DNA of 64,000 bases from Proteobacteria bacterium UBA5122 (GCA_002415485.1 DHYU01000050.1:21519-85518); one strand, 5' to 3'. Shown: positions 24,099-58,670, counted from the stretch's first letter. Notes: a model not told the origin generated them from the letters alone. Numbers and translations are program-made.

Positions 24099-24131
24099 TT
24101 TGTTCCCTCAAACTTATTCAACAACCGATAC

Positions 24132-24512: not shown

Positions 24513-24797
24513 GTTCTTATCCAAACCAGAAACCTCCGTGCTAGCAAGACGACTCCGTGACTGCATATCCCTTACTATTTTCGGGCAAGTAGTTAGTGAG
24601 CAATCCACCCATTATTACTATCTGCAGTTTAGAAAAAATATTTAGGAATCTCGTGTTGATTTTTGTACAAAAAAGATATGTGAATCAAAATTTTCCAATT
24701 CACATGGCAGCAATGTGCATTTGCCACCCAATCAGCAAATCACCACAAAATATTAAGGAAATTGAGCGCCGCCGATATCCATACCGGCAGCCTGCTC

Positions 24798-29819: not shown

Positions 29820-30984
29820 CTACGCCTTTAGGCTTAACTACATTGCCATCTGCATCGTAGTGCATATCATCTGGCACCTCGACATTAGGCATATTAATTT
29901 CAGAAGACCCACTCTTCCCAGGCTTCTGCCGTAAATGAAAGACGAAGGCCAACACCTGGGCGACAGCCAGATACAAACCCTCTGGAATTTCTTGATCCAA
30001 TTCGGTGGTGTGATAAATCGCCCGCGCCAATGGAGGCGCAGATAAGATGGGAACATTGTTTTCCTGGGCGATTCGACGTATTTCAAAGGCCACAAAATCA
30101 GCCCCCTTGGCGACCACGATCGGTGCACGCATCTTATCTTGATCATATTTGATCGCAACCGAGAAGTGGGTTGGGTTGGTAATGACCACATCCGCCTCAG
30201 GCACTGCCTGCATCATACGACGGATCATTACTTCCATCTGTGTTTGACGAATGCGCGACTTCAGCTCAGGACTACCTTCCGTATCCTTATTCTCCTGTTT
30301 GACTTCCTGTTTGGTCATCTTCAGTTGCTTGCGGTGATTCCAGGCCTGGAATGGCACATCCACAACAGCAATAAGAATCATCGTCAGGCTAACTAACAAG
30401 AACACCCAAACCACCATCAAGGAGCCGTGTTCAATAGCCTGCTCCAGGGGTTCGCGAGCCAATACCAACACCTCGTCCATGAACCACCACAAAAGCACAA
30501 CACCCAAGCCCATAATGACAGCGAATTTGACTATTGATTTACCCAACTCCATCAAGGCCTGGGTGCCCACCATTTTTTTGACACCCTTAAGGGGATTCAT
30601 TTTGCTTGGCTTGGGTACCAATGCCTGAGTTGAAAAGTTCCAACCACTCATTGCCAAAGAACCGACTATTGCAGATGCAAGCATCACCAACAAAAATGGT
30701 GTCAATGATGACAAGGCAATCGCAATCGACTCCATAAATGCATTTAATCCGAGAGAACTATTAAAAACTTGTTCACGATCTAGTGAAAAACTACCGCGCG
30801 CAATATCGAACATTGCCTCAACAGTCCAATGCCCAAATATCAGGATACTCACAGCACCACAAATCAGCATTACAGTTGTTGTGAGTTCCTTGGAACGCGC
30901 CACCTCACCCTTTTTGCGCGCATCCGCCAGCCTCTTTGCCGTGGGTTCTTCTGACTTGTCTTGACCATCGTTATTCTCAGCCAT
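29812..30984 (-). CDS. flhB: Flagellar export switch protein FlhB
   Basis: 390 aa with N-terminal EEPTAKRLADARKKGEVARSKEL, four TM segments and the autocleavage motif NPTH (VVITNPTHFSVAI). Confidence 0.95.
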   Translation of the reverse strand: MAENNDGQDKSEEPTAKRLADARKKGEVARSKELTTTVMLICGAVSILIFGHWTVEAMFDIARGSFSLDREQVFNSSLGLNAFMESIAIALSSLTPFLLVMLASAIVGSLAMSGWNFSTQALVPKPSKMNPLKGVKKMVGTQALMELGKSIVKFAVIMGLGVVLLWWFMDEVLVLAREPLEQAIEHGSLMVVWVFLLVSLTMILIAVVDVPFQAWNHRKQLKMTKQEVKQENKDTEGSPELKSRIRQTQMEVMIRRMMQAVPEADVVITNPTHFSVAIKYDQDKMRAPIVVAKGADFVAFEIRRIAQENNVPILSAPPLARAIYHTTELDQEIPEGLYLAVAQVLAFVFHLRQKPGKSGSSEINMPNVEVPDDMHYDADGNVVKPKGVGD

Positions 30985-30991
30985 GTCATAC

Positions 30992-31765
30992 TCACCGGGT
31001 CAATATCAACAAGGACTGCTCAAACCCCTTGTCAAATAGGGCCTGAATATTAATGGCGATGGAAGGAAGTGTTGCAACAAGCAAAACAAAACCAGACAAG
31101 ATGATAATAACGAAACCGACTGAGAAAATATTCATCTGAGGAGTCGCGCGGGTCACCACCCCCATCACAACATTGATCATTAACAAACCAATAACGATAG
31201 GTAGAGAAATTGTCACTGCCCCCGCAAAGATCAAGGCCCCAAACTTCACCAAATCCCAAATACCTGTCTTAGACAACCCACCACCGAGAGGCAGTATTTC
31301 GTAGCTCTGGTGAATGATGGCAATCAACACCAAATGACCATCGAGGGCCAAAAACAACAATATGGTAAAAATATTCAAGAATTGAGAAATAACGGGAACG
31401 TTAATACCAGAAGATGGATCCATCATCTGAGCAAAACCCAATGCCATTTGCATACCGACAATTTGCCCCGCATGCACCACCGTGGCGAATATCATTTGCA
31501 ATGTAAACCCCATTGCCACCCCGATCATTATTTCTCCAGCAATAAACAACATTCCAGCAGCTGACAATGGATCAAAGGTCGTTGGCATTGGCTCAATCAG
31601 CGGCGCCATGAAAACAGTCAATGCGAGCACCAAAATCACCTTGACATGACCTGGCACCGAGTTGGACCCTACTAATGGAGCTGCCATTAAAAAAGCAGAT
31701 ATGCGAAACCCCGGCGCCGCATACTGCAGCAAGAGATTGTGCACATCTGCCGGCGTAAAAGTCAT
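30992..31765 (-). CDS. fliR: Flagellar export apparatus protein FliR
   Basis: 257 aa polytopic membrane protein in the fliPQR-flhB position. Confidence 0.9.
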   Translation of the reverse strand: MTFTPADVHNLLLQYAAPGFRISAFLMAAPLVGSNSVPGHVKVILVLALTVFMAPLIEPMPTTFDPLSAAGMLFIAGEIMIGVAMGFTLQMIFATVVHAGQIVGMQMALGFAQMMDPSSGINVPVISQFLNIFTILLFLALDGHLVLIAIIHQSYEILPLGGGLSKTGIWDLVKFGALIFAGAVTISLPIVIGLLMINVVMGVVTRATPQMNIFSVGFVIIILSGFVLLVATLPSIAINIQALFDKGFEQSLLILTR

Positions 31766-31774
31766 AACACTCCC

Positions 31775-32044
31775 CTAACCAATCACCAGGGGGATATTTT
31801 GATAGAGCTGGGTGACGTATGCGACCAGTGTTTTTAATATCCAAGGCCCCAAAAAAATCAACATCACAAAGGTAATCAGCAGCTTTGGAATAAATGTCAT
31901 GGTTTGTTCATTAATCTGTGTGGCGGCCTGAAAGATTGCGATAAGCAATCCCACGCACAACGCTGGCAATAAAATCACAGCATTTAACAGAATCAGTAAT
32001 TCCAATGCTTCACGACTAATAACAATGGTCGTTTCAGGAGTCAT
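31775..32044 (-). CDS. fliQ: Flagellar export apparatus protein FliQ
   Basis: 89 aa two-TM protein between fliP and fliR. Confidence 0.9.
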   Translation of the reverse strand: MTPETTIVISREALELLILLNAVILLPALCVGLLIAIFQAATQINEQTMTFIPKLLITFVMLIFLGPWILKTLVAYVTQLYQNIPLVIG

Positions 32045-32053
32045 ATATCCCCC

Positions 32054-32791
32054 TCATCGCACATAGAAGCTAGACGCCAGAGTTCCCAACAAGAGAACCC
32101 ATCCGTCAACCAATACAAACAGCATAATTTTGAATGGCAGCGAAATAATCAGTGGTGACAACATCATCATACCCATCGACATCAACACACTTGCCACAAC
32201 CAAATCTATAATGAGAAAAGGAATAAAGATCATGAAGCCAATTTGAAAGGCGGTTTTCAACTCACTGGTCACAAACGCTGGCACCAACACCTTAAGTGGG
32301 ACATCCTCCAGTGTTTCTTCAGTCACAGTTGTATTTGATAAATCCAGAAACAAGGCCAAATCCGGCTCCCGAACCTGATCCAACATAAACTGCTTAAAGG
32401 GTGCCAATGCCCCTTTGAGTGCAACATCGCTGGCCATTTCCTCATCCATATATGGCTTAATGGCATTTTCATAGGCCCGATCAAACACTGGGGCCATAAT
32501 GAAAAATGTCAGAAACAGCGATAGTCCGATAATAATCTGATTAGTGGGTGTCGACATGGTACCCATCGCCTGACGCAATAAAACCAACACAATGGCGATG
32601 CGGGCAAAACAAGTCATCATTAACAAGGCGGCAGGCAAAAACGACATTAGTGTCATCAATGCCAACACTTGAATGGTTAATGTATAAGTTTCGCTACCAT
32701 CTGGATTAACCGTCATGTTGAGCGCATCCAGCCCAGGCGATGCCTGCGCAGGAGCAGCCAACATTATGACCATCAACAACAACCATTTCAT
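32054..32791 (-). CDS. fliP: Flagellar export apparatus protein FliP
   Basis: 245 aa with a signal-like N-terminus and conserved FliP segments ([46 protein letters not shown]). Confidence 0.95.
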
Positions 32792-33381
32792 GATTCACGC
32801 CCCTTCATTGCCTGTTTCAGACGCAAAGCAAAAGCACCATTCGTTTTTTCAGAATCGTTAATAATCACATGATCACTCGGTGAAATTTCATGCAGTTTTT
32901 CCACTCGACCAGGTGCAACACCAAGCAATAACTGAGTATCCCCCACCTGCACAATGACTACGCGTTCTTTCTGACCAACATTCAATCCAGCCACCAGTTT
33001 CAGTTGCCCCTGACCTGAAACAGAAAAATTGCCATACCTCTTAACCAGCCAAGCCAAACCAAAAATAATGACAATAACGACTATCAAACCAAATATCGTT
33101 TTCAACAGCTGAGTGGCACTTGCAACTTCTGGCGATGCTGCTGGCGGTTGCGACATGCGTGTCGCAACCACCGGCTTCTCTGTGCTGACTGAATTATCAT
33201 TGGCAATGTCGCCTACTGGAGCGACAGTCTCTACCACAGGTTCTACAACAGGCTCTACAACATCACTTTCAATCGCCTGCCCATTGGCAACCCCTGTTGC
33301 AAAACACAAACCAAAGAATAACGATGCCAATAGAGCATATAGATTGAACTTAGGGATTGACTGAGACAACCTGATCAACAT
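32788..33381 (-). CDS. fliO: Flagellar protein FliO (extended N-terminal region)
   Basis: The C-terminal half has the FliO TM helix ([20 protein letters not shown]) and soluble domain ([29 protein letters not shown]). The N-terminal ~90 aa add a second hydrophobic segment and a [11 protein letters not shown] repeat. Located between fliN and fliP. Confidence 0.8.
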
Positions 33382-33389
33382 GCATACTC

Positions 33390-33791
33390 CTACTTGAGCT
33401 TTTTAATTCGCTCAGAGGCACTAATGACGTCGGTCAGGCGAATACCAAACTTTTCGTTAACCACCACGACCTCCCCATGAGCAATCAGGGTGCCATTCAC
33501 CAACACATCCATTGGTTCGCCAGCCAGACGATCCAGCTCAACTACCGATCCCTGATTCAATTGCAACAGATTGCGAATACTGATTTTGGTTCGACCAATC
33601 TCCATGGAGATCGTCACAGGTATATCAAGAATCACTTCCAGATTGGAATTTTCATCAACACTACCACCTACCGCAGGCGTCAATTCGTTAGGATATGCTG
33701 CCTCAGCTTCCTGTTCTGCCTGTTCAGCCAATGCAGCGGCCCAATCATCACCAACATCACCCATATCATCGCCATTATTTTTATCGTTCAT
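33390..33791 (-). CDS. fliN: Flagellar motor switch protein FliN
   Basis: 133 aa with an acidic N-terminus and the SpoA domain (VVELDRLAGEPMDVLVNGTLIAHGEVVVVNEKFGIRLTDV). Confidence 0.95.
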   Translation of the reverse strand: MNDKNNGDDMGDVGDDWAAALAEQAEQEAEAAYPNELTPAVGGSVDENSNLEVILDIPVTISMEIGRTKISIRNLLQLNQGSVVELDRLAGEPMDVLVNGTLIAHGEVVVVNEKFGIRLTDVISASERIKKLK

Positions 33792-34798
33792 TTGACTTTA
33801 CCTCCAATTTTCGAGGCATGGGATACAGGCGAGCGTACCGGCCCCAAAATTTTGATCGCATTATTCCCTTGATATGCACCAAACTTGCCTTTAAATACAG
33901 GCACATCATCTGCAGTCGCTAAAAACACCTCATTCGGATACTCAAAAGGAATGATATCGCCAACCTTTAGGTCTGCGACTTTTTTGAGAGACATATCAAC
34001 TTCAGTCAATATGCTCTTCAGCAAAATAGGTGCGGCTTTGATATCTTCTTTCAACGCATTGGTCCAGCGCTCATCAACCTCCGTTCGATCACTAACGGTT
34101 CCGGCATCTAATAATTCACGAATTGGCTCGACCATTGAGTATGGAATCGTGACATGAAGATCCCCACCACCTCCATCCAACTCAACGTGAAAAGTGCTGA
34201 TGACAACAACTTCCGTTGGGCTAACGATATTTGCAAAGTGAGGATTGACTTCGGAATTCTGGTACTCAAACTCGACCGACAGGACAGGCGCCCATGCGTT
34301 AGCCATATCCTCAAATACCTTATTCAGCATCAACTCGATGATGCGATTCTCGGTTTGAGTAAATTCGCGGCCTTCAATTTTGTTATAAAACTTACCACTA
34401 CCCCCAAAGAAGTTATCCACTACGATAAACACCAACTTTGGATCAAATACAATCAGTGCGGTCCCCCGCAAAGGGCGGATATGGACCAAGTTCAAGCTGG
34501 TTGGCACAAACAAGCTGTGCACATACTCAGCAAATTTCAACATCTGCACACCACTCACAGAGATCTCGGGTGAGCGACGCAGCATATTGAATAAGTTAGT
34601 GCGGAAATAACGAGCAAAACGCTCGTTAATCATTTCCAGGGTGGGCATACGCCCACGAACAATCCTGTCCTGACTTGTAAAATCATAAGAACGCGCATCA
34701 CCATCGAACACATCATCGTCTGTGGCAACGTCACCATCATCAACGCCATGTAAAAGCGCATCGATTTCATCTTGTGATAATAGATCGTTGATAGACAT
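33788..34798 (-). CDS. fliM: Flagellar motor switch protein FliM
   Basis: 336 aa with the N-terminal CheY-P binding peptide LSQDEIDALL, and the middle and SpoA-like domains. Confidence 0.95.
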   Translation of the reverse strand: MSINDLLSQDEIDALLHGVDDGDVATDDDVFDGDARSYDFTSQDRIVRGRMPTLEMINERFARYFRTNLFNMLRRSPEISVSGVQMLKFAEYVHSLFVPTSLNLVHIRPLRGTALIVFDPKLVFIVVDNFFGGSGKFYNKIEGREFTQTENRIIELMLNKVFEDMANAWAPVLSVEFEYQNSEVNPHFANIVSPTEVVVISTFHVELDGGGGDLHVTIPYSMVEPIRELLDAGTVSDRTEVDERWTNALKEDIKAAPILLKSILTEVDMSLKKVADLKVGDIIPFEYPNEVFLATADDVPVFKGKFGAYQGNNAIKILGPVRSPVSHASKIGGKVK

Positions 34799-34800
34799 AT

Positions 34801-35313
34801 TTATTGCATCACAAAGCTGGTGAAATACACTTCTTCGATCTCGCTAGCGCCTTCATATTTCTCGATTACATCGCGAATTTCTTGCAAGGCAGCTTGACGC
34901 AACATTTCTTTACCTTCGCGACTCACCAGCGTTTCGAACGTTTGACTACTGAACATAAGAATCAGGTTGTTGCGTATCACTGGCATGTGCAACACAAGCG
35001 CATCCAGTGCTGTTTTTTCGTATGCCATCACCTCTATGCTGATCTGCAGATAACGAATACCTGAATCAGTCTCGAAATTGACGGTAAAGGGCTCTTGGAA
35101 CTTGTGATAGATCGGGATCTTTTTCTCAGGCTTTTGATCGGCCTCTGCAACTGCCGCCTCTTTAGGTTTCTCAAAGAACCCCATGAAATAGAGTGTTCCG
35201 GCTACACTGCCGCCAATAAACAGCAGAACCACCAGAATCAATACCAGTTTACTTTTGCCACCCTTGGCCTTCGCTGGTTTTTTATCGTCTTCTTCAATGT
35301 CAGCCATGTTCAT
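34801..35313 (-). CDS. fliL: Flagellar basal-body-associated protein FliL
   Basis: 170 aa with a single N-terminal TM helix. First gene of the fliLMNOPQR block. Confidence 0.9.
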   Translation of the reverse strand: MNMADIEEDDKKPAKAKGGKSKLVLILVVLLFIGGSVAGTLYFMGFFEKPKEAAVAEADQKPEKKIPIYHKFQEPFTVNFETDSGIRYLQISIEVMAYEKTALDALVLHMPVIRNNLILMFSSQTFETLVSREGKEMLRQAALQEIRDVIEKYEGASEIEEVYFTSFVMQ

Positions 35314-35352
35314 TGTCCTTTGTATTGCCAGTCAGATACTGACGATACAATA

Positions 35353-35367
35353 GCAAGAAACATGCCC
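35353..35367 (-). promoter_or_regulatory. sigma54 (-24/-12) promoter candidate for fliL operon
   Basis: The minus strand reads GGGCAT-GTTTC-TTGC, with correct GG-N10-GC spacing, about 40 nt upstream of the fliL ATG. An AAGGA RBS follows. Confidence 0.55.
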
Positions 35368-35525
35368 AACTATTTATTCATTTAATTTCAATCAGTTGCG
35401 ACGACGGCAGCAGAAAACGCCACCCTTTTGACTCATAAAAACACGAATATCCGCCATAAATATGGCGCGTATCTAGCATAAGGAAGGCACCGGCACCTCG
35501 GACACAAGGCGCCGGCAAAGAAGGA

Positions 35526-36839
35526 CTAGGCGTAGAAGTCGATTGCGCCGTTTAGGCCGTCGACACCTTCAACCACTGTATCGCGGCCACTGGCAATCTC
35601 ATGACCAGCCGAGCCAGATCGCTGATCATCACGACCACCATCTTGTGCCTGCTGTTGACGGCGATCTTTAAGCGATTGATCGGTCACCTGGGCATCTGCC
35701 AAGTTAAAGCCTTGGGCATTCAGCATTTCACGCAGTCGTGGCATAGAGCTATCTATGATATCTCGTACTGCGGCATGCTGAGAGCTGATCGTTACCCTGG
35801 CCTGATCATCATTGAGCTCTATCCTCACCTCGATAGGCCCCAAACGTTCAGGATTCAAACGTATTTCAGCAGTTTGCACCTTGTCGCGCACCATCCAGGT
35901 AATACGATTGGCAAAGGCATTCGACCAGCCAGGATCCTGAACGGGCAGTGGAATGGCGGTCGAAAGCGGCGCGGCTTGAGCCACAGCGACAATAGGTCTA
36001 GCCCCATTTATCAATGAAGATGCCGCCGTCATCCATGCCTGAGGCTGCTCGCCGCCGGATTGACGACCGCCGGAGTTACCCCCCAAATCCGTGCCGCCTC
36101 CCCCTTGACCTGTTTGAGCCATTTGATTCATTAAGGCGCTCATCTTAACCTGACGAATCACATCAGCTTCTTTCTTTTCTACTGTTTCAGCAACCTTGGG
36201 GCGCGCGATCATCTCTTCCGCCTGTTCTGTCGGCGAGGCATTCGCTAGCTCGGTCGCCAACGGCTTCGAACCCTTGGCTTCCAAGCCAAATTCAGCATTG
36301 AATGGCAATGGAACATCGGTACGTCCCTGAACACTCTGCGCGATAACCGCTGCCGCAGAGGCTGGCATATTCGCCGGTAAAGGCTTGAGCTCCGCTTGAG
36401 GAGAAATATACAGTTGATGTTGCTGCAGGAACCCGATAATTGCCTCTTCATCCCCTTCTTGTAACAGGGCCTGAAACTCCTGCAGCACTCCATCCAACTC
36501 AGGTGCGGCACTCACCGGCCCTAGCTCACCGGCCTGTAATTGAGCCAACAGATCTTTAAATATCTGCGGCAACTCATTGCTACCGTCTGCAAACAATTGC
36601 GGCAGCCCGCTGCCCCCTTCGGCAAACAGTTGCCCCAACAACTCGACAGGCATCGCACCTGGCGGCACAGGCAAACGTCCATTGGCCGTCAATGCCTGCC
36701 CGGCTGCCATATATTGAGACAAAAACAGACCACCACTAACCAGTTGATTACCCTCCATTTTTGGAGGAGCCACACTAAAGCCCACCTCTCCACTCTTAGG
36801 TGGATTCAGCGATAACAATGGAGAAAGTCCTGTGTTCAT
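35526..36839 (-). CDS. fliK: Flagellar hook-length control protein FliK
   Basis: 437 aa, A/Q/G/P-rich. C-terminal Flg_hook-type domain: AEIRLNPERLGPIEVRIELNDDQARVTISSQHAAVRDIIDSSMPRLREMLNAQGFNL. Confidence 0.85.
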   Translation of the reverse strand: MNTGLSPLLSLNPPKSGEVGFSVAPPKMEGNQLVSGGLFLSQYMAAGQALTANGRLPVPPGAMPVELLGQLFAEGGSGLPQLFADGSNELPQIFKDLLAQLQAGELGPVSAAPELDGVLQEFQALLQEGDEEAIIGFLQQHQLYISPQAELKPLPANMPASAAAVIAQSVQGRTDVPLPFNAEFGLEAKGSKPLATELANASPTEQAEEMIARPKVAETVEKKEADVIRQVKMSALMNQMAQTGQGGGGTDLGGNSGGRQSGGEQPQAWMTAASSLINGARPIVAVAQAAPLSTAIPLPVQDPGWSNAFANRITWMVRDKVQTAEIRLNPERLGPIEVRIELNDDQARVTISSQHAAVRDIIDSSMPRLREMLNAQGFNLADAQVTDQSLKDRRQQQAQDGGRDDQRSGSAGHEIASGRDTVVEGVDGLNGAIDFYA

Positions 36840-36873
36840 ATCACACCCTTGTTAGCAATCCAACTTAATATAG

Positions 36874-36888
36874 GCAAGTTTTATACCA
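36874..36888 (-). promoter_or_regulatory. sigma54 (-24/-12) promoter candidate for fliK
   Basis: The minus strand reads TGGTAT-AAAAC-TTGC with correct spacing, 35 nt upstream of the fliK ATG. Confidence 0.5.
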
Positions 36889-36946
36889 ACAATTGCAGGG
36901 TGAATACGAAGGGGGTATCAGCCCAGGATAGGAGACCAAGACGCAA

Positions 36947-36967
36947 CCCCCCGTAATATACGGGGGG
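36947..36967 (-). terminator. Hairpin terminator after the second che operon
   Basis: CCCCCCGTA, loop ATA, TACGGGGGG (9-bp stem), lying 6 nt after the cheB2 stop. The downstream T tract is weak (TTGCGTCTT). Confidence 0.55.
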
Positions 36968-36972
36968 ACCAA

Positions 36973-38040
36973 CTAGTCCTGGATTAGTTTTAAAATATGA
37001 TCGGAAACCTTATTCAGGGGGACAATGTGGTCAACCCCACCACGGGCAACGGCCTCACCCGGCATTCCCCAAACCACACTGGTCTTTTCATCCTGCGCAA
37101 TGGTCTTGGCCCCGGCATCATGCATTTCTTTCAGGCCATCTGCACCATCGGCCCCCATCCCCGTCAGAATAACACCTGTCGCATTAGGCCCGGCACTTTG
37201 AGCCACCGAACGAAACAACACGTCTACTGATGGACGATGCCGATTGACTGGAGGGCCATCACTCAATTTACACACATAACGGGCACCATCACGCACAACC
37301 AGCAAATGAGCACATCCGGGGGCTATGTACGCATGCCCTGGCAAAATTTGCTGCCCATCTCTCGCCTCACAGACTGACAGCGCTGTATTTTTATCCATGC
37401 GCGCAGCAAATGGCGCGCTAAAAGCTTCAGGAATATGCTGCGCAATTACTATGCCGGGCGTATCAGGCGGCAATCCCATCAACACATCCTTAATCGCCTC
37501 CGTTCCCCCTGTAGATGCACCAATCGCAATCAGTTTGTCTGTCGTCTTGTAATGACGAGTTGTGGATTTGCTGATCACTGCATCGGCAGAAAATTTGGGC
37601 TTGGCTTTTAACGATGACCCGGATAAATTCGCCAATGCTGCCGGCTTAACATTGGCTGCAACGCGAATCTTAGCAATCAATTCTTCCCGATATTCATTTA
37701 GACCATACTGCAAATCAATCTTGGGTTTTGTCACAAAATCAATTGCCCCAAGCTCAAGTGCTTGCAGTGTAACATCAGCACCTTGCTCAGTCAGGGAGGA
37801 CACCATTACAACTGGCATTGGCCGCAGCCGCATCAAATTACGCAGGAAGGTCAACCCATCCATGCGTGGCATCTCTACATCCAGAGTTAAAACATCAGGA
37901 TTAAGTTGTTTGATTTTGTCACGAGCAATTAATGGATCCTGCGCTACGCCAACAACTTCGATATCGCCAGCGCTCTGCAAGATCTCCGTCAGCATCTGTC
38001 TTACGAGTGCTGAATCGTCAACTATAAGTACTTTGATCAT
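36973..38040 (-). CDS. cheB: Chemotaxis methylesterase CheB (cluster 2)
   Basis: 355 aa. REC ([23 protein letters not shown]) plus esterase (GASTGG, AQHIP, GMGADG). Confidence 0.95.
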
Positions 38041-38051
38041 GCTATCTACAC

Positions 38052-38669
38052 CTAAAACAAATCAATTTCGCCTTCGATAGGCTTAGACTCCAAGGTATCC
38101 AAGTAACGAGTCTCGCGTTCGATAATCGTATTATTGTGCAATGATCTTAGTTTCTTCATACGGACCTTACCCGACATAGGGTAATACTGAACCTTCCTAG
38201 GATAGATATCACCCACATCTTCGGCGATTAGTTTTAGACCTTCCATTCGAATAAATTCATGCACAAACTGAATATTCTTACTGCCAATATTGGTCATTTT
38301 CTCGAGAATCTTACCACCACCAAATATTTTGATCTCAAGATTTTCACGGCGCCCACCATGCTTCAGTATCGAGTTGATCAATGCCTCCATCGCATAGTTG
38401 CCATACCGTGTCGCCATGCTTCCCCATGCAGAGTTGGCATCATGCTGTCTTTCGGGCTGACTAGCCGGGAGCATAAAGTGATTCATGCCACCGATGCTAA
38501 ACACCCTGTCTCTGACGCAAGCGGACACACAAGAGCCCAATACAGTAACAATTACTTCATCATAGGTAGTAACATAAAACTCACCCGGCAAAATCTTGGC
38601 CGCATTTATTTCCTGAGCCTTATCCCAATATCTGTTTATATTCTCAAATCCGGGGAGCACAGGCTTCAT
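38052..38669 (-). CDS. cheD: Chemoreceptor glutamine deamidase CheD
   Basis: [10 protein letters not shown] and the catalytic-Cys motif [11 protein letters not shown]. Start chosen at the ATG at 38669, preceded by GGAG. The track start at 38714 is a TTG overlapping the cheR stop and cannot be excluded. Confidence 0.85.
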
Positions 38670-38710
38670 ATCAACTCCACGCATCCTATGCGATGAATGC
38701 ATTGGCCACC

Positions 38711-39541
38711 TCAATGAGTTTTTCGATAAATTGTCTGCCCCAACAGGCTAAATCTATCAGACACTTTATAAAGCGTTTCGGAGTGCCCAACAAACAAATG
38801 GCCATCATCTCGAAGCGCATTAGCATATCGATCAAACAAAATCTTCTGGGTAGGCTTGTCAAAATAAATCACCACATTTCGACAAAAAATTAGGTCCATT
38901 TTATTCTTAATTGGCCACTCCCCCATCAAATTCAATTGACGAAAGGTAATCATATCCCTTAACTCCTGGGACACTCTCACTTTACCCTGAGAACCACCTT
39001 TGCCACGTAAAAACCATTTCTTAACAACAGAGGCGGGCACTCCCTTAATACGATCTTCTGTATAAACACCACTCTGCCCAGTTGCCAATACATTGGTATC
39101 CAAGTCAGTTGCCAATATTTTCACATCCCATCCCGACGATTCGGAGATGACCTCTCGCACAGTCATTGCGATGCTATATGGCTCCTCCCCTGTCGAACAT
39201 CCCGCTGACCAGATGCGAATCTTCCTGGTGGCCTGGTTCTGCTTCATCAAATTAGGTAATAAGGTTGTCTTTAAGAACTGAAAATGGTGATCCTCTCTAA
39301 AGAATGCAGTCAGGTTCGTCGTCACCGAATTGATAAAGTTACCAATCTCAGGATTCGACGAATCCTCGAGCATGGAACAATATTTTTTGAAATCAGCCAC
39401 ACCAAGCTGTCTCAAGCGTCTAGCAAGGCGACTATACACCATATCACGTTTGCCTTCGCTTAAACTGATTCCAGTATGCTCACGAACCAGGACTCTGATT
39501 TTTTCAAAATCACTGTCGCTTAATTCAAACTCCTTAGACAT
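38711..39541 (-). CDS. cheR: Chemotaxis methyltransferase CheR (cluster 2)
   Basis: 276 aa with an N-terminal helical domain and a SAM-binding fold (RIWSAGCSTGEEPYSIAM, IFCRNVVIYFD). Confidence 0.95.
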   Translation of the reverse strand: MSKEFELSDSDFEKIRVLVREHTGISLSEGKRDMVYSRLARRLRQLGVADFKKYCSMLEDSSNPEIGNFINSVTTNLTAFFREDHHFQFLKTTLLPNLMKQNQATRKIRIWSAGCSTGEEPYSIAMTVREVISESSGWDVKILATDLDTNVLATGQSGVYTEDRIKGVPASVVKKWFLRGKGGSQGKVRVSQELRDMITFRQLNLMGEWPIKNKMDLIFCRNVVIYFDKPTQKILFDRYANALRDDGHLFVGHSETLYKVSDRFSLLGQTIYRKTH

Positions 39542-39576
39542 CGTATTTACCCGTCCTAAACTAGAACATTAAAGGC

Positions 39577-42339
39577 CTAGAATTCTTCCCATTCACCGCC
39601 ATCGGCATCATTCGAACGACCGGCACTTGGCTTCCTAGGGGCAGCTGTTTTCCGCGCAGGGGCTGGGCGTGAAGCTGGCGCGGATGGAGCAGCTGTGCGA
39701 CGGGCTGGCTGGCGAGCGTTATGATTATCAACACCCACATTGAAAAACTCCATCATCGTCAGCATGCCTTTCGCCTGTTCATCCATGGACTCACTCGCAG
39801 CAGCTGCCTCTTCCACCAACGCAGCATTCTGTTGTGTCACCTCATCCATCGACATCACAGCTTTATTAACTTGCTCGATACCTGCAGATTGCTCCTGACT
39901 TGCAGCGGCAATCTCAGCAATAATATCGCTAACCTTTTTAACCGAATTCACAATTTCTTCCAGAGTATCACCTGATTCATTCACCAGACGAGAGCCCTCT
40001 TCGACCTTTTCTACGCTATCTTTTATCAGCGTTTTAATCTCTTTGGCGGCTGAAGCACTACGCTGCGCCAGACTTCTCACTTCAGACGCAACAACCGCAA
40101 AACCTCTTCCTTGCTCTCCTGCACGTGCTGCCTCCACGGCCGCATTTAGTGCCAACAAATTAGTTTGGAAGGCGATCTCATCAATAACACCGATGATGTC
40201 GGCAATTTTCTTGCTCGCCGCATTGATCTCGGCCATGGCTGATACTGCATTACCAACAACATCACCACCTTTCTCGGCTTGCTGACGGGCACTGGATGCC
40301 AATTGGTTTGCCTGTCTTGCATTGTCAGCATTCTGTTTCACGGTACCTGTTAGCTGCTCCATGCTAGATGCAGTCTCTTCCAGGGAAGATGCCTGCTCTT
40401 CGGTCCGCTGACTCAAGTCAGAATTACCCTGCGCGATCTCTGAAGATGAGGTTTGAATATTTTCGGATGTTTCTCTGATCTTGATTACCATGTCCTTCAA
40501 ATTGGCCATCGACGAATTGATAGCGTCTTTAAGGACACCAAACTCACCTCCATAATCATTAACAACACTATTGGTCAGATCACCATCAGATAGGCTCTTG
40601 ATGACTGTAATCCCTTCACGCAGAGGAGCAACCATCGAGTCAATGAGATTATTCACAGACTCAGACAAACCACGCATAAAACCTTCGTATCGACTTGAAT
40701 CGATACGCTTATCAAGATCACCTTGAGATGCAGCCTTAATCAGCTCACGCACTTGAGATTCAGCATCTTTTTGTTCGGTAATGTCTTTCCACTCAACCAT
40801 ATTCCCCATGTAATTTCCTTTGGAGTCAGTGATCGCAGTGGCATTAACTTCAAACTCTAGATCCAGGAGCTTGATCTCTGCCTTGGCAGGCAAGCGAGAT
40901 AGATCAGATAATAATGAGCGTTGATGTGCAGGATTCTTGTGGAACTGGTCAATATTCTGGCCAACCAACTTATCTGGATCCAACCTTGGAAACACCTTGC
41001 GTAGTTCACTTATACGGCGACGCAACAACTCAACAACAGATGAGTTCACATAGGTGATATTTAAATCTTCATCACACAGCATCAATGCGCTAGTAGAGCT
41101 ATCAACAGCAGACTTCAGTCGTGACACCTCCATCTCCCGGGCTCTTTGCTCGGTCACATCTGCCCACTCCAAAGAGTTACCGATATACTCTCCAGCCATG
41201 TCAAACAGGGCGCACACATTAATATTAAATATTAAAGGTCCTACCTTGATATCTGTGCTGTACGGCAAATTAGATGGATCGGCTAACAGTTTACGCTGAT
41301 GGCTCGGGTTCTTATGAAAGATATCTATACATGTCCCCAGTGCCGAAGAAACACTAAAGCCTGGATATAACTGTCTCAGGGTACTTTCATTTTTCGTGAG
41401 CAACTCAATGGTGGCCGTGTTGGCATAGGTGATCACCAAGTCTCTATCGATCATCATGACCGGAGTCATTGAGTTTTGCACTGCTGCCTGCAGCCGAACC
41501 ACCTCGTTTTCTTTCTGACGCAACTCTGTTACATCGGACCACTCCAAGGTATTCCCAATGTAATTACCGGCATCATCAAGCATCGCGGTAATATTCAATT
41601 GGAATGTCAGCGGCCCTACTTTGATATCTGTTTTGTAGGGAAAATTTGCCTGATTAGCCAATATTTTTCTCTGGTGAGAGGGGTTTTTATGGAATTGATC
41701 GATACACTCTCCAAGCAGATCCTTTGGATTCAGCCCTGGGAATATAGATCTTAGTACATCTACGTTTTTGCTTAACAAATCCACCGTTGCTTGATTGGCA
41801 TATGTAATCTTAAGATCCCTATCGATCATCATAATCGCAGTCATGGACCCAGACACAGCTGAACGCAACTCCAACACCTGTTTCTTCAGCGATTCATAGT
41901 CCGTTTTTTCAACCTGAATCATATTTGCGCTCATGTTTGTTTGCTCCTTGTGCACTGGGTTTGTATTTGATTTATTGATTATTTCTAATAAGTATTGTGT
42001 CAACTCATCAGCACTATGCTGCATCGACCCCTTATTAGTCTCGGCTGAAAACTTTATTAACTCAGCTTTTATTTTGTGAACAATTGTCTCGTCTAGATGC
42101 AGCCTGTTCAACCACGCTTCATCCAGTTTTTCACCCTGCCCCCCGGACGCTGATGCATCTAAGGCGCTCGAGACAAAATGACAGAAATTAAATACCTGGT
42201 AATTTGAAATGGGTGGCGAAAAACCAAACTCCGTTGGTGCTGAGAGAATTTCATCGAACAAATAATGCTCAAACTCAGATATCACGGACTTATCCAGCGC
42301 TGCCGTGCCGCGCTGTTTGCTATTCGTGCTCATTGCCAC
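39577..42339 (-). CDS. Soluble methyl-accepting chemotaxis protein: unknown N-domain, three tandem PAS modules, HAMP, MA domain, C-terminal EWEEF pentapeptide
   Basis: 920 aa with no hydrophobic TM stretch. The highly conserved signalling hairpin [38 protein letters not shown] is present. It ends in ...GGEWEEF after a P/A/R-rich tether. Confidence 0.9.
40765..41892 (-). repeat. Three tandem ~124-aa PAS-like modules inside the MCP gene
   Basis: Modules start at about aa 165, 289 and 413. Each contains (I/L)xITYAN, IDxFHKNP(S/A)HQR, a (T/A)(D/E)IK segment (TDIKVGPL in modules 1-2, AEIKLLDL in module 3) and G(N/E)Y(I/M)GN..EW.D(V/I)TE. Confidence 0.85.
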
Positions 42340-42508
42340 CCCCAGCAGTGATTCCCCATTAATAAACGGGAATTAAATTTTATGGTGATTGTTTTTATGG
42401 CTGTATACGAGCCAAGATGAAAAGCTGTTGTGCGCTCAACAAACCCGTACATTACGACCATCGATCGTACGCACAAACTGACATTCTGCCAGCATTGGCT
42501 GCATACCA

Positions 42509-43024
42509 TTAATCACGGACTAAACGCCCAGCTTCAGCGACAATGCTACTATTCAGCAAATGATCTATATCCAACACAATGATCATCTTTTCATCGATCG
42601 TCGCCAAGCCTTTAACAAAATCTGTACTTATTGCTTGACCAAAATCAGGGGCCGCTTTCAGTGCATCTTCATTGATATTGTAAACTTCTGAAACTGCATC
42701 CACGACGATCCCCATTGTGCGCTCGCCCTTCTCGCCCTTAATTTTGAGGACGATTACAACAGTCGTTGGGCCATACGCAATCGCCTCCAGCCTGAATCGC
42801 TCGCGCAAATCAAAGATCGGGACAATCGTTCCACGCAAGTTGATCACACCTTTGATATACGCTGGTGTATTTGGGATAGGCGTTACTTGATCCCAGCCCT
42901 TGATCTCCTGCACTCGCAGGATATCCACGCCGTACTCTTCGCCGGCCAACATAAAGGTCAGATACTGGTTACCTTCGCCATTCATTCCCAAGACTTCATT
43001 ATCCATTCTGTGCACCGTATTCAT
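42509..43024 (-). CDS. cheW: CheW (cluster 2)
   Basis: 171 aa with a single CheW domain (YLTFMLAGEEYGVDILRVQEI...INLRGTIVPI). Confidence 0.9.
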   Translation of the reverse strand: MNTVHRMDNEVLGMNGEGNQYLTFMLAGEEYGVDILRVQEIKGWDQVTPIPNTPAYIKGVINLRGTIVPIFDLRERFRLEAIAYGPTTVVIVLKIKGEKGERTMGIVVDAVSEVYNINEDALKAAPDFGQAISTDFVKGLATIDEKMIIVLDIDHLLNSSIVAEAGRLVRD

Positions 43025-43033
43025 AGTTATCTC

Positions 43034-45172
43034 CTAGGCTGCTGCCGAAGCTGCTGCCCGTTTTTTGATGCGTTCTTTGGATAGCTTTACCAATCCTGGG
43101 ATATCTAGGATCAACGCAACTGTACCATCCCCAAGAATTGTCGCACCCGACAGGCCATCTACCCGCTTGAAATTTGATTCCAGGCTCTTGATCACTACTT
43201 GTTGCTGACCCAATAGATCGTCAACAAAAATGCCAGCCAACTGACCATCCCCCTCAACGACTACCAGCAGTCCATTGATCAACTCTTTATTGTCACACTT
43301 GGTATTAAATACCTTATGCAGCCGCAGGATAGGCACATACTCATCGCGCAGTCTATAAAGCTCAGAATCAGAAGCAATAGACTTCACATTCTCTTTGCGG
43401 ATTTGCAGAGATTCGATAATAGAGACTAGCGGGACAATGTATGTTTGATCGCCCAAACGTACCAACTGGCCATCAAGAATAGCCAATGTCAAAGGAAGGC
43501 GGATGGTAAATCTCGACCCTTTTCCGGGTATTGAAAGCACCTCGATCGCACCACTCAAGTCCTTAATATTCTTCTTCACCACATCCATGCCGACGCCCCG
43601 GCCAGACACGTCACTGATCTGATCTGCGGTTGAAAATCCTGGATAAAAAATGAGCTCATTAACCTTTTCTGCGGACAACTCATCACCCGCGTTTATCAGC
43701 CCTTTTTCAATTGCTTTGTTCTTGATCTTCTCTGTATTCAGACCAGCACCATCATCACTAATTTCGATGACAATATTACCGCCTTGGTGATAGGCATTCA
43801 GATGAAGCGTAGCGACTGCAGGTTTGCCAAGAGATGCACGCACTTCAGGTTTTTCAATGCCATGATCCAATGCATTGCGTACAAGATGGACTAATGGATC
43901 ACCGATCTTTTCCATAACTGTTTTATCAAGCTCGGTGTTCTCGCCCGAGAGCTTGAGTTCAACGTTCTTACCCATTTTTTGACTTAAATCGTGCACCAGC
44001 CTGGGAAAACGATTAAATGCAAAACTGATAGGCAACATACGAATACGCATTACATTTTCTTGTAATTCACGCGTATGATGCTCCAACTCGGCCAACCCTT
44101 CCTGTAGGCGCTGGACCTTATCCATCGTAAAGTCTTCGCCTAGTTGATTGAGCATCGACTGGGTAATAACAAGCTCGCCGACCATATTGATCAACGCATC
44201 TACCTTATCAATCCCGACACGAATCGAACCCGATTCAGTACTGGGGGGCGCTGCTTTTCTCGCAACGGCGGATTTTTCTTCAGTTTTTGGTGGAGCGATT
44301 GGTGGAGCTTCTTTGGGTTGAGCTGCTGCGACAGCCGCAGCTTTAGCAACAGGTGCTGGCGCTGCCGGCGCAGTCGTTTTACTAGCAGGTGCCGCTACCG
44401 GGGCAACCGCCACTGTTTCTACTGTTGTTGCCTTTTGCTCACCACCGATAATGGTTAATTCCAACTCACAATCATCATCCACCCAAGCGAATACATCACG
44501 AATTTGGGCCTCATCGGCATCGCCAATATATTCAATCTCCCACGACAGAAAACAGTCTTCAGGATCAATATCGGCAAATGAAGGTAGCCCACTATCATTC
44601 ACCTTGACCTGGATGGTGCCCAGATCGGACAATTCTTCGAATAAACGAACAGGATCATTCCCTGTCTTGAACAGATGAGAAAGCGGTTTAAAACGAATGT
44701 GCCATCCTGAACCAACCATAACTTCCGGATGATCCGACAAAGAGGTGTGATCAACACCAGAAACATCATTGTCTGGCTCCTCTCCACCTTTCAACAATCG
44801 TTCTAATTGCTGCTGTACTTCGGCCGCGTGCTCTGCATCAATATCTTGGCCCGTCTTTAGGGCATTCAGCATTTCGCGCAACACATCCACCGAGGTCAGC
44901 ATCAAATCTACCGCAGGCTGGGTGACATTGCGCTTTCCATCACGCATTTCATCCAGCAAGGTTTCCAATACGTGTGTAAAACTGGCGACAGCATTCAAGC
45001 CAAACGTGCCACTGCCTCCCTTTATCGAATGGGCTGCACGAAATATTGTGTTAATACTGTCTTGATCAGCGGCACCTACATCAAGCTCCAGGAGCTCGCT
45101 TTCCATGATGTCGAGTCCTTCAAAACTCTCCTCATAGAAAGTGTCGAGAAACTGACTGACATCAATACTCAT
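43034..45172 (-). CDS. cheA: Chemotaxis histidine kinase CheA (cluster 2)
   Basis: 712 aa. HPt FRAAHSIKGGSGTFG, dimerisation domain, HATPase (DDGAGL, GRGVGMDVV) and a CheW-like C-terminus. Confidence 0.95.
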   Translation of the reverse strand: MSIDVSQFLDTFYEESFEGLDIMESELLELDVGAADQDSINTIFRAAHSIKGGSGTFGLNAVASFTHVLETLLDEMRDGKRNVTQPAVDLMLTSVDVLREMLNALKTGQDIDAEHAAEVQQQLERLLKGGEEPDNDVSGVDHTSLSDHPEVMVGSGWHIRFKPLSHLFKTGNDPVRLFEELSDLGTIQVKVNDSGLPSFADIDPEDCFLSWEIEYIGDADEAQIRDVFAWVDDDCELELTIIGGEQKATTVETVAVAPVAAPASKTTAPAAPAPVAKAAAVAAAQPKEAPPIAPPKTEEKSAVARKAAPPSTESGSIRVGIDKVDALINMVGELVITQSMLNQLGEDFTMDKVQRLQEGLAELEHHTRELQENVMRIRMLPISFAFNRFPRLVHDLSQKMGKNVELKLSGENTELDKTVMEKIGDPLVHLVRNALDHGIEKPEVRASLGKPAVATLHLNAYHQGGNIVIEISDDGAGLNTEKIKNKAIEKGLINAGDELSAEKVNELIFYPGFSTADQISDVSGRGVGMDVVKKNIKDLSGAIEVLSIPGKGSRFTIRLPLTLAILDGQLVRLGDQTYIVPLVSIIESLQIRKENVKSIASDSELYRLRDEYVPILRLHKVFNTKCDNKELINGLLVVVEGDGQLAGIFVDDLLGQQQVVIKSLESNFKRVDGLSGATILGDGTVALILDIPGLVKLSKERIKKRAAASAAA

Positions 45173-45176
45173 GGGA

Positions 45177-45539
45177 TTACCTCAATACTTTTTTGATAGT
45201 GGCGAGTAATTGATCCGGGTTGAATGGTTTGACAATCCATCCCGTAGCCCCCGCAGCCTTGCCTTCTGCCTTTTTATCCGAACCTGATTCAGTCGTCAGC
45301 ATCAACATAGGTGTAAACCGGAAATTGGGTAACGCACGCAGCTCGCGAATCAGGGATATACCATCCATATTTGGCATGTTGACGTCGGTGATTACCAAGT
45401 CAACCTTATTGCTTTTAGCCTTTGATAGGGCATCAACCCCATCTACAGCATCTACCACCGTATAACCGGCACCTTTTAATGTAAATACCACCATTTGACG
45501 CATGGACGCTGAATCATCTACTGCAAGTATCGTCGGCAT
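45177..45539 (-). CDS. cheY: CheY-like response regulator (cluster 2)
   Basis: 120 aa stand-alone REC domain (ILAVDDSASMRQ, DVNMPNMDG, VKPF). Confidence 0.9.
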   Translation of the reverse strand: MPTILAVDDSASMRQMVVFTLKGAGYTVVDAVDGVDALSKAKSNKVDLVITDVNMPNMDGISLIRELRALPNFRFTPMLMLTTESGSDKKAEGKAAGATGWIVKPFNPDQLLATIKKVLR

Positions 45540-45590
45540 GTTGCTTCCCCCGTTATACCTAATGCTACTCAGGTATTACCTGTGTCCTAA

Positions 45591-45899
45591 CTATAAACCC
45601 ATGGCTTCCGTTACGCCGCTCAGTCTCGCGGCATTGCATACCGTATCCGATGGCGCACGCCAAGATACGGAAAATCCCGCATCTTTAGCATGTATAAAAA
45701 AAGAGTAAATCAGCTGCAGAGCCGCAGCATCAATTCGTTCAATGCGGGATCCGTCCAGTACAACCGGCATATTCTGCTCGGCCGCCTGGGCAAGCAAAGC
45801 TTTGAAGTCTGTCAGAACAGAAACATCCAGCGAATCCTCACACTCGATCAATGTTTCTGATGATATATCCCCGTTGTCCATTAATTTCGATCCTTCCAT
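45591..45899 (-). CDS. STAS-domain protein (anti-sigma-factor-antagonist-like), first gene of the second che operon
   Basis: 102 aa. Its size and pattern (VVLDGSRIERIDAAALQLI) fit the SpoIIAA/STAS fold. I see no obvious DSxG phospho-serine motif. Confidence 0.6.
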   Translation of the reverse strand: MEGSKLMDNGDISSETLIECEDSLDVSVLTDFKALLAQAAEQNMPVVLDGSRIERIDAAALQLIYSFFIHAKDAGFSVSWRAPSDTVCNAARLSGVTEAMGL

Positions 45900-45955
45900 A
45901 TCCGTAGGTTGATCGTTTGTCCTGTAGGCAATGTACCCGCTCCTTACAAGACGTT

Positions 45956-45982
45956 TTAGCGGCAGTCATTAACAACACTTTA
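45956..45982 (-). promoter_or_regulatory. sigma28 (FliA)-type promoter candidate upstream of the STAS-che2 operon
   Basis: The minus strand reads TAAA-GTGTTGTTAATGACT-GCCGCTAA. The consensus is TAAA-N15-GCCGATAA, so this has exact spacing and one mismatch in the -10. It lies about 55 nt upstream of the STAS ATG. Confidence 0.55.
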
Positions 45983-46081
45983 GAACACATCAAACTTATT
46001 AAGATCAAAAACCACACTCGACAATAGGTTTTTACTTATTCAAAACCAACAACTTACATGATATCGACCTTCACCTCTGGC

Positions 46082-46519
46082 TCAATCTTGATCCACCCGC
46101 AGCGGCCTGTCATCCAATTCCCGTTGTTCTCGCTTTGCCTGAATTACCCGTTCGTCCGCCATGTACTTCTCCAGAACTGCGTCCAAGGCACGAGAACGCC
46201 CACGCTTGGCAAACCAAAAACGCTTTTTTTGCTCAAGATAACGTTTCGATGACTCCACCACTTCCCGCTGCGCCTCAATCGCAGCCTTGATCTTGGTCAA
46301 AAAGGCGCGAAAATCGTTGATTCTGCTGCCGGATATTCCCGCCTGGCCCGCTGTTCTAAAGCGTTCCATATACTCCAGTTGATAACCTTCCAGCTGCTGC
46401 AACCGCTCACTATTATTGTTCAAGGCCTTGAGTGCTGCAGCCAGTTCTTTGACAGCATCTTTCTCATCATGGTGAGCCAAATCAACCACTGGCTGAATGC
46501 GTTGTGACTTCTTAATCAT
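46082..46519 (-). CDS. fliJ: Flagellar export chaperone FliJ
   Basis: 145 aa coiled-coil protein. The start overlaps the fliI stop (ATGA). It occupies the position after fliI. Confidence 0.85.
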
Positions 46520-58639: not shown

Positions 58640-58670
58640 AAAATCACCTCACTAGATGCTTTATCCTGAG

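Follow-up and report, generated by a model that had tools for sequence, protein, structure and literature searches.

An F7-type chemosensory operon between fliJ and fliK in the flagellar gene cluster of Proteobacteria bacterium UBA5122

An F7-type operon in a flagellar cluster

The accepted account holds that chemosensory systems of the F7 class had no connection with the flagellum before a late 'repurposing', and their role outside enteric bacteria is a long-standing question. The oldest F7 clusters, termed stage 1, are defined by a leading anti-sigma-antagonist gene (Ortega et al. 2020, PMC7184735); they include cluster III of Vibrio cholerae (VCA1088-1096) and MEALZ_2869-2879 of Methylomicrobium alcaliphilum. 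Here we analyse a second chemosensory operon in a stretch of 64,000 nucleotides from Proteobacteria bacterium UBA5122 (GCA_002415485.1 DHYU01000050.1:21519-85518), hereafter called the window, whose minus strand bears a polar flagellar cluster of the Pseudomonas/Vibrio type. The operon, at positions 36973-45899, lies between the flagellar genes fliJ and fliK. With a probability of about 0.65, we regard it as an intact stage-1-type F7 pathway that is a separate transcription unit where the fliEFGHIJ and fliK operons meet, senses oxygen via an Aer2-type receptor, is expressed with the late flagellar genes and occupies an ancient, vertically inherited position, with swimming as its favoured output. 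In the literature searched, neither a che cluster flanked by fliJ and fliK nor any F7 cluster within a flagellar cluster is described, and the supplements of Ortega et al. do not mention fliJ/fliK.

The extent and completeness of the operon, as given in a preliminary description of this DNA, are confirmed: Eight intact open reading frames (ORFs) with clear Pfam or NCBIfam matches follow one another on the minus strand. They encode a protein of 102 residues that consists of a STAS domain only (45591-45899; Pfam STAS_2, 2.8e-12, 47 bits), the single-domain response regulator CheY2 (45177-45539; Response_reg), the five-domain histidine kinase CheA2 (43034-45172; Hpt, H-kinase_dim, HATPase_c and CheW, with 612 bits across the full length of the NCBIfam model of Escherichia coli CheA), a single copy of the coupling protein CheW2 (42509-43024; CheW), an Aer2-like soluble tri-PAS receptor of the methyl-accepting chemotaxis protein (MCP) type (39577-42339; NCBIfam Aer2 of Vibrio, 1061 bits), the methyltransferase CheR2 (38711-39541; CheR_N and CheR), the deamidase CheD (38052-38714; Pfam CheD, and NCBIfam PRK13487 with 266 bits against a cut-off of 223) and the methylesterase CheB2 (36973-38040; Response_reg and CheB_methylest). 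The physical embedding in the flagellar cluster is equally clear, as the operon is flanked on the same strand by fliJ (46082-46519; Pfam FliJ, TIGR02473), the final gene of the upstream flagellar operon, and by fliK (35526-36839; Pfam Flg_hook), the opening gene of the downstream one.

Judged from the heptad class of the receptor, the gene order and BLASTP comparisons with E. coli K-12, the embedded cluster is an F7-type chemosensory system. The cytoplasmic domain of the receptor aligns without gaps to residues 217-522 of E. coli Tsr, which places the receptor in heptad class 36H, the class of F7 systems; the alignment to the cytoplasmic domain of Tar spans 327 residues. A complete F6 system, the main chemotaxis system, lies 12 kb downstream of the operon (15936-24608, minus strand; cheY-cheZ-cheA-cheB-motA-motB-parC-(cheW-like)-cheW, assigned by Pfam) and permits a direct comparison of the paralogues. 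CheB2 shares 57.5% identity with E. coli CheB, and the F6 paralogue CheB1 39%; the corresponding values are 48.7% and 33% for CheW2 and CheW1, and CheA2 matches E. coli CheA over its full length with 496 bits, CheA1 with 293 bits. CheR2 is 44.6% identical to its E. coli counterpart, and the F6 block has no CheR paralogue in the window. For CheY the relation is reversed: CheY2 and CheY1 share 40% and 63% identity with E. coli CheY, respectively, and CheY1 forms an E. coli-like pair with the CheZ encoded in the F6 block. This is the pattern expected if CheA, CheW, CheR and CheB of E. coli derive from F7, and its CheY and CheZ from F6, as put forward by Ortega et al. (PMC7184735). The earlier assignment to the F7/Che2 type, with the gene order of P. 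aeruginosa che2, is thus upheld by the 36H receptor and the E. coli-like CheA, CheW, CheR and CheB.

With the stage-1 clusters the window shares the gene order STAS, cheY, cheA, cheW, aer2 (for a 36H Aer2-like soluble receptor), cheR, cheD, cheB as well as an F6 system with cheZ in the same genome. It differs from them in having one cheW gene instead of two and in the absence from the window of a trailing mcpA-like receptor gene, a second STAS gene and a serine phosphatase gene; cheB is followed directly by fliK. It also differs in its position between fliJ and fliK downstream of a sigma-28-type motif; PMC7184735 gives no flagellar context for stages 1 and 2. The cluster is a trimmed form of a familiar system, the stage-1-type F7/Che2. 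Since stage 1 is defined by a leading STAS gene, this gene is typical and not the unusual accessory for which it had been taken. The Che2 cluster of P. aeruginosa (PA0173-PA0179, McpB/Aer2) has the same order from cheY to cheB and a haem-PAS Aer2 with a CheR-tethering pentapeptide; however, it has no leading STAS gene, its Aer2 contains a single PAS domain and extra HAMP domains, and it lies far from the flagellar genes. In Che1 of Shewanella oneidensis (F7 stage 2, CrsA/CrsR), F7 and Aer2 are linked to a partner switch of STAS and PP2C-kinase proteins; such genes are absent from the window, and no location inside a flagellar cluster has been reported for Che1.

The three PAS repeats of the receptor are spaced at exactly 125 residues, and each carries FHKNPxHQR, the region of the haem-coordinating histidine of Aer2, and EWxD(V/I)T, with the O2-stabilising tryptophan and DxT (haem-PAS residues as defined in PMC10107281). 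The third repeat aligns to the PaAer2 PAS structures 3VOL and 4HI4, the C-terminus reads EWEEF, the CheR-tethering pentapeptide, and no hydrophobic segment is found in the receptor (peak 19-residue hydropathy 1.41). These features, together with a HAMP unit and the 36H module, are shared with Aer2 of Vibrio vulnificus, a tri-PAS-haem O2 sensor (PMC10107281). Two differences exist in addition to the fact that haem binding is predicted for the window protein: Its score against NF041847 lies below the equivalog cut-off of 1200, which makes it a relative and not an equivalog of Vibrio Aer2, and it possibly bears an extra, fast-evolving N-terminus of 135 residues. From the conserved motifs we infer O2/haem sensing by the three PAS domains.

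The first 135 codons of the aer2 ORF (41935-42339, minus strand) are 32% identical to the corresponding part of locus L081, compared with 80-98% for the remainder, and the frame is open in L081, too. An internal ATG at 41934 follows a strong Shine-Dalgarno sequence, AAGGAG, and would yield a protein of 785 residues; owing to the poor conservation upstream and this ribosome-binding site, 41934 is probably the true start. We also considered what else the 135-codon stretch might represent. A decayed globin domain, as relatives have globin-PAS receptors, was rejected at an hhalign probability of 1.3%, and a relic of a second cheW or of a ParA gene was rejected as phmmer returned no match to either. 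Moreover, nothing CheW-like is encoded in the 574 nucleotides from cheW to the internal start of aer2.

Transcription signals and relatives of the locus

Upstream of the STAS gene, at 45956-45982 on the minus strand, lies the sigma-28 (FliA)-type promoter motif TAAAGTGT-N11-GCCGCTAA, which agrees with the consensus TAAAGTTT-N11-GCCGATAA at 14 of 16 positions, has the correct spacer and orientation and ends 56 nucleotides before the STAS ORF has its first ATG. The promoter-like site noted previously at this place proves to be the sole strict sigma-28 match in 64 kb, with 0.03 expected by chance; elsewhere in the window, a comparable site occurs only upstream of fliC. The motif stands out in the comparison of related loci: The fliJ-STAS intergenic regions are otherwise about 50% identical, and TCTAAAG...TGCCG(C/T)TAA forms a conserved island. 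With the same gap of 14 nucleotides between TAAAG and the -10 octamer, the motif recurs in L081, L082, L083, L089, L090, L086, L087, L088 and L027, and weaker versions occur in L014, L015, L017 and L032, at a background of 0.006 per 200 nucleotides for the relaxed pattern in all DNA fetched. A sigma-28-type motif with a fixed 14-nucleotide spacer is thus conserved upstream of STAS in at least nine diverged loci, which we consider a new result. A generic scan for sigma-70 promoters returned fewer sites than shuffled sequences. The predicted sigma factor for the F7 operon promoter is the product of fliA (sigma-28; 24798-25544, minus strand; Pfam sigma-70 regions 2, 3 and 4), which is located between fleN and cheY1.

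At the other end of the operon, the hairpin CCCCCCG-tatatta-CGGGGGG (36947-36967, minus strand) begins 6 nucleotides past the cheB2 stop codon. Of its earlier description as strong, the hairpin itself stands, with an extended fold of -24.6 kcal/mol (z = -2.9), and its T-tail turns out to be weak, so that we regard it as a likely, albeit imperfect, terminator. Unrelated hairpins with T-runs occupy the same place after cheB in L081 and L083. Beyond it, 34 nucleotides upstream of fliK, a sigma-54-type motif, TGGTATAAAACTTGCC, is located at 36873-36888 on the minus strand; in the alignment with L081, L082 and L083 its TGGTA and TTGC columns are invariant, and L089 has a perfect sigma-54 site, TGGCACAAATATTGC, at the equivalent place before fliK. 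Three transcription units are predicted from these signals: fliEFGHIJ, a FliA-type F7 operon and a sigma-54-type fliK operon. Because the sigma-28 motif precedes the operon, the hairpin follows it and fliK has a sigma-54 motif of its own, late flagellar-class expression is predicted, and the transcriptional embedding that had been raised as a possibility gains support from the conservation of the motif here and in many orthologous loci. As a separate observation, two strict sigma-54 consensus sites occur elsewhere in the window (33480-33495 and 58670-58685, both minus strand), one 31 nucleotides upstream of fliD and the other within fliN, where it could drive fliOPQR.

This three-unit picture parallels that of Pseudomonas putida, in which FliA contributes weakly to the promoter PhsbA and PfliK depends on sigma-54/FleQ (Leal-Morales et al., bioRxiv 10.1101/2021.08.29.457346). 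The hsbA-hsbR-hptB module of P. putida and relatives is located in the same slot, flanked by fliJ and fliK, and has a STAS gene in first place, a FliA-dependent promoter upstream (weak in P. putida, a motif in the window) and, downstream, a fliK with its own sigma-54 promoter. In contrast to the window operon, it contains no che genes, its HsbA has a phosphorylatable serine and an adjacent kinase/phosphatase partner, its main promoter is RpoS-dependent and the module is co-transcribed with fliK.

For the synteny comparison, a scan with FliI, limited to one genome per species, returned 80 loci, the best of which, from a Thiohalobacter metagenome-assembled genome, was 77% identical; their gene order was mapped by tblastn and phmmer. 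A STAS-F7 cluster follows fliJ directly in L015 and in six Methylophaga/Methylophagaceae-like loci, and follows fliK in L014, L017 (Thioalkalispiraceae; checked with Pfam) and L027. The presumption that fliJ and fliK are normally contiguous in Pseudomonas-type clusters does not hold: Pseudomonas, Stutzerimonas, Marinobacter, Zooshikella and others show the order fliJ-hsbA(STAS)-hsbR(REC-PP2C-kinase)-hptB-fliK (see also bioRxiv 10.1101/2021.08.29.457346). An uninterrupted fliJ-fliK-fliL occurs in 14 loci. In Thiohalobacter-like loci a globin-PAS-GGDEF-EAL gene separates fliK from fliL, and in several further loci the cluster ends after fliJ or fliK. In L081, whose CheB is 90% identical, the order fliJ-STAS...cheB-fliK-fliL is the same as in the window. 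L082 (Candidatus Tenderia electrophaga), L083 and L089 have this layout minus the aer2 gene, and CheB identity across all four relatives amounts to 73-90%. Three contexts picked via the STAS family alone, L086 (Woeseiaceae), L087 and L088, all fall within flagellar clusters, with F7 after fliK.

Additionally, we scanned metagenomes with a CheD profile, which makes no assumption about flagellar context; the three composite loci described next were verified with Pfam. In L135, fliJ and fliK are separated by a full stage-1 cluster, in the order fliI-fliJ-STAS-cheY-cheA-cheW-ParA-aer2-cheR-cheD-cheB-MCP-STAS-SpoIIE/HATPase_c_2-fliK. L134 and L158 carry F7 and the hsbA-hsbR-hptB module together in the fliJ-fliK slot, as F7-hsbA-hsbR(REC-SpoIIE-HATPase_c_2)-Hpt-fliK-fliL; like L135, they thus resemble Shewanella Che1 in joining F7 to a partner switch. 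These composite loci, which to judge from their gene order link the layout of the window to the hsbAR-hptB site of Pseudomonas, constitute a second new result. Further contigs, many of them short, bear canonical stage-1 clusters beside which no flagellar gene is visible.

Several side observations concern the relatives. In L024, L034, L037, L046 and L135, the sigma-54-like sequence CTGGCATGGTCTCTGCAT is found about 300 nucleotides upstream of STAS; four of these five loci have it in identical form, and L135 does so over the 15 nucleotides checked. In L024, L034, L037 and L046, a conserved ORF of roughly 60 residues lies between this sequence and the STAS gene. The F7 operons of L082, L083, L089, L090 and L158 have no receptor gene, cheW being followed directly by cheR, which implies for the Tenderia-type operon that the Aer2 partner is encoded elsewhere or lost. 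L090 (1-21071) is a reduced flagellar cluster with fleQ, a short fliF (354 residues), fliG, the F7 operon (STAS to cheB, no aer2), fliM, fliN, fleN, fliA, F6 che and motAB; the 21-kb stretch fetched contains no fliE/H/I/J/K/L or export-gate genes, and it may be a motor-and-switch remnant retaining both chemosensory systems. Between cheW and cheR, L086 (13338-17259), L087, L088, L014, L027 and the Methylophaga loci possess genes for a ParA-like ATPase, an ORF of about 54 residues and a globin-PAS receptor with the conserved N-terminal peptide G(D/F)DPLAW(L/M); this set, which is not found in the window, recalls the partitioning of cytoplasmic arrays by PpfA/TlpT in Rhodobacter. L088 (10691-13129) encodes a CheA of 812 residues with a precomputed Globin Pfam match among its CheA domains; such a kinase would contain a haem sensor domain itself. 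In L094, L146 and L093 the order is fliK-cheY-cheA-cheW-MCP-ParA-STAS-cheR-cheD-cheB-fliA, with STAS in mid-operon and fliA immediately downstream. Finally, the closest FliI relatives (L003:13476-15728, also L001, L005, L009 and L033) encode another oxygen/haem-type sensor between fliK and fliL, a protoglobin-PAS-GGDEF-EAL protein of 750 residues.

Output of the pathway and the STAS protein

We propose the following course of signalling: O2 or another haem ligand would bind to the three haem-PAS domains of soluble Aer2, as their conserved motifs suggest, and the signal would reach CheW2/CheA2 via the HAMP region and then the kinase-control domain of class 36H. Phosphoryl groups would pass from CheA2 to CheY2 and CheB2, and adaptation would be accomplished by CheR2, tethered to the C-terminal EWEEF, together with CheD and CheB2. 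The promoter motif suggests that the pathway would be made as a late flagellar-class product, i.e., in cells with a finished hook-basal body. In comparison with E. coli CheY, CheY2 keeps D12, D13, D57, T87 and K109, and our favoured guess is that its output modulates swimming in oxygen gradients.

Several points weigh against this reading. Regarding output, CheY2 differs from motor-binding CheY at the FliM-contact positions Y106W, I95K, A90S and K119T, a complete F6 system with CheZ is encoded in the same window, F6 drives the flagellar motor in the organisms with stage-1/2 F7 clusters that have been studied (Ortega et al. 2020, PMC7184735), and the output of Shewanella F7 is tied to RpoS. Regarding position, the fliJ/fliK/fliL junction also gathers unrelated signalling genes, such as those for the globin-GGDEF-EAL protein and MCPs, so that position alone proves little. 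Regarding expression, the sequencing runs found to hold the window are metagenome DNA runs and include no RNA run, the sigma-28 site is a motif match, Methylophaga-type loci share the perfectly conserved, sigma-54-like CTGGCATGGTCTCTGCAT in its place and several F7 clusters have neither of the two; furthermore, read-through into fliK is possible because of the poor U-tail of the hairpin, and hsbAR-hptB of P. putida is co-transcribed with fliK (bioRxiv 10.1101/2021.08.29.457346).

The points on output and position likewise favour the alternative that comes closest to our own reading, namely that the F7 operon merely lodges at an insertion-tolerant boundary, has no functional tie to the flagellum and serves an output other than motility, be it stress/RpoS, cyclic di-GMP or biofilm formation. 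Such an output has been proposed for Shewanella Che1, and both cluster III of V. cholerae and Che2 of P. aeruginosa are suspected to have one. In addition to the absence of the E. coli FliM-contact residues, the full F6 system alongside and the published assignment of motor control to F6 and of Che1 to RpoS, this explanation can draw on the relatives, whose junction hosts hsbAR-hptB, globin-GGDEF-EAL, MCP and cheW genes, and on the hsbA-fliJ junction being a preferred insertion or split point in Pseudomonas (Leal-Morales et al., bioRxiv 10.1101/2021.08.29.457346). What speaks against it is that the sigma-28 motif, with its fixed spacer, is kept across diverged loci whether the cluster lies before or after fliK, that the linkage to flagellar genes persisted through a long co-divergence and that it is retained even in the reduced cluster L090. 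We therefore deem neutral lodging unlikely, although it deserves serious attention, and prefer a flagellum-linked pathway with a presumed output to swimming.

A second alternative concerns the leading STAS protein. Its start is likelier the ATG at 45881, which is preceded by the Shine-Dalgarno sequence GGAAGGA and gives 96 residues, the form present in the protein database; its nearest solved structures are MlaB-type STAS proteins, with weak matches. Where HsbA-like controls, taken from Pseudomonas/Marinobacter-type loci, read LDSSALG, the window protein reads RIDAAALQ. An alignment of 17 F7-linked STAS proteins yields ERID-[A/T/C/G]-A-x-LQ, with alanine at the second position after ERID in 17 of 17 sequences; this family is without the phosphorylatable serine of partner-switch proteins. 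Moreover, no kinase, anti-sigma factor or PP2C phosphatase that could act as partner for the STAS protein is encoded in the window, and no kinase or phosphatase partner in L081, L082, L083 and L089. Since both the phospho-serine and a kinase/phosphatase partner in the window are missing, classical phospho-controlled partner switching, to which the gene had been linked in the preliminary description, is unlikely.

A precedent is offered by CheS of Sinorhizobium meliloti and Agrobacterium, which PMC12654446 describes as a STAS-only protein that is encoded just before cheY-cheA (cheY1-cheA), binds CheA and alters the handling of CheY. The window protein is likewise small, consists of a STAS domain only and is encoded directly upstream of cheY-cheA in a che operon; CheS belongs to another chemosensory class and phylum, and the likeness is one of gene position and STAS-only make-up. 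Most plausibly, if speculatively, the STAS protein would be a CheA/CheY-associated accessory resembling alpha-proteobacterial CheS. It might instead be a true anti-sigma-factor antagonist that binds FlgM, by which the pathway would feed back on FliA activity via partner switching. The STAS fold of the leading gene product, its position, which equals that of hsbA in Pseudomonas clusters, and the reported antagonism of P. aeruginosa HsbA towards FlgM are in line with this idea. Yet the missing phospho-serine motif of the F7-linked family and the missing kinase/phosphatase partners argue against it, as does the published finding that HsbA of P. putida is without effect on FliA activity. The composite loci, too, carry the 5' STAS gene and an HsbA-like STAS gene side by side as separate genes, which indicates paralogues with different roles. 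We consequently hold FlgM binding to be improbable and retain the CheS-like role.

Locus history and significance

That a mobile che cassette recently entered this genome by horizontal transfer is highly improbable: A guanine-plus-cytosine (GC) content at 38-44 kb (0.45) slightly below that of fliF-fliI (0.51-0.53) would fit such an event, but the fliK-fliP region is equally low (0.45-0.47), relatives with 73-90% CheB identity share the layout, Che and flagellar trees are congruent, and mobility genes and repeats were not found beside the cluster in the window. Neighbour-joining trees of FliI+FliJ and of CheA+CheW+CheY, each from 12 loci, show the same groupings, and the pairwise distances correlate with r = 0.91. 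The shared synteny, these congruent trees and the GC content of fliK-fliP, which matches that of the F7 cluster, together imply that the arrangement is old and inherited; the term 'inserted' used previously is thus misleading, as this arrangement is routine among relatives and the Che genes have diverged in step with the flagellar ones. The flagellar-embedded F7 layout is old, is common to many environmental bacteria and is not a one-off insertion.

Because L135, L134 and L158 join both layouts, they suggest that those of the window and of Pseudomonas are remnants of one composite locus. From its gene order, the window looks like a trimmed version of fliJ-[STAS-cheY-cheA-cheW-aer2-cheR-cheD-cheB-mcpA-hsbA-hsbR(-hptB)]-fliK, which is still found complete in some uncultured bacteria, whereas Pseudomonas and Marinobacter retain hsbA-hsbR-hptB only. 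A neighbour-joining tree of CheR+CheB distributes the embedded clusters over at least four clades; it is poorly resolved, many contigs being short, and gives no direction of evolution. A further, tentative and on the whole doubtful reading holds that the entire F7 system of Gammaproteobacteria, along with the HsbA/HsbR (CrsA/CrsR) switch, originally resided in the fliJ-fliK (or fliK-fliL) slot; the system would have begun as FliA-controlled, flagellum-linked oxygen sensing. If so, the window kept the che core, Pseudomonas and Marinobacter kept hsbAR-hptB, and Vibrio, Shewanella and P. aeruginosa relocated the cluster; the later 'takeover' of the enteric motor by F7 would then have started from a long-standing tie to the flagellar regulon and would not be a repurposing from scratch.

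The remainder of the window is described here for completeness. Its flagellar genes run in the order fliC, fliD, fleQ-fleS-fleR, fliEFGHIJ (down to 46082), the eight chemosensory genes, fliKLMNOPQR-flhBA-flhF-fleN-fliA and the F6 block. An MptE-like protein of 845 residues, possibly an enzyme of the Maf type that modifies flagellin, is encoded divergently from fliC at 60251-62788 (plus strand). Where the F6 block ends, the gene for a further FliK-like protein (460 residues with a Flg_hook domain; 13535-14917, plus strand) lies beside a DUF2802 gene (15223-15606, minus strand) and a gene for a pentapeptide-repeat protein (12335-13270, minus strand); this arrangement corresponds to fliK2/flrD described for the flagellar cluster of P. 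putida. The GC content is 0.56-0.61 at positions 1-14000, where genes for an ABC transporter, PhoU, a helicase and a radical SAM protein are found, and falls to 0.45-0.47 over much of the flagellar/che region (30000-46000). The window is part of a 284-kb contig in the ENA metagenome assembly ERZ925377.

Should the sigma-28-type promoter prove inactive, our finding shrinks to a conserved but ordinary synteny. As it stands, the window points in the direction opposite to the accepted account of F7 evolution: The F7 operon is resident in the flagellar cluster across a wide set of environmental Gammaproteobacteria, among them Tenderia-like electroautotrophs, Methylophaga, Woeseiaceae and sulfur oxidisers, many of which carry the conserved FliA-type promoter motif. 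The window moreover ties the HsbA-HsbR-HptB switch of Pseudomonas to the same locus history and thereby provides a lead on the ancestral role of F7 systems and on the origin of HsbA/HsbR.

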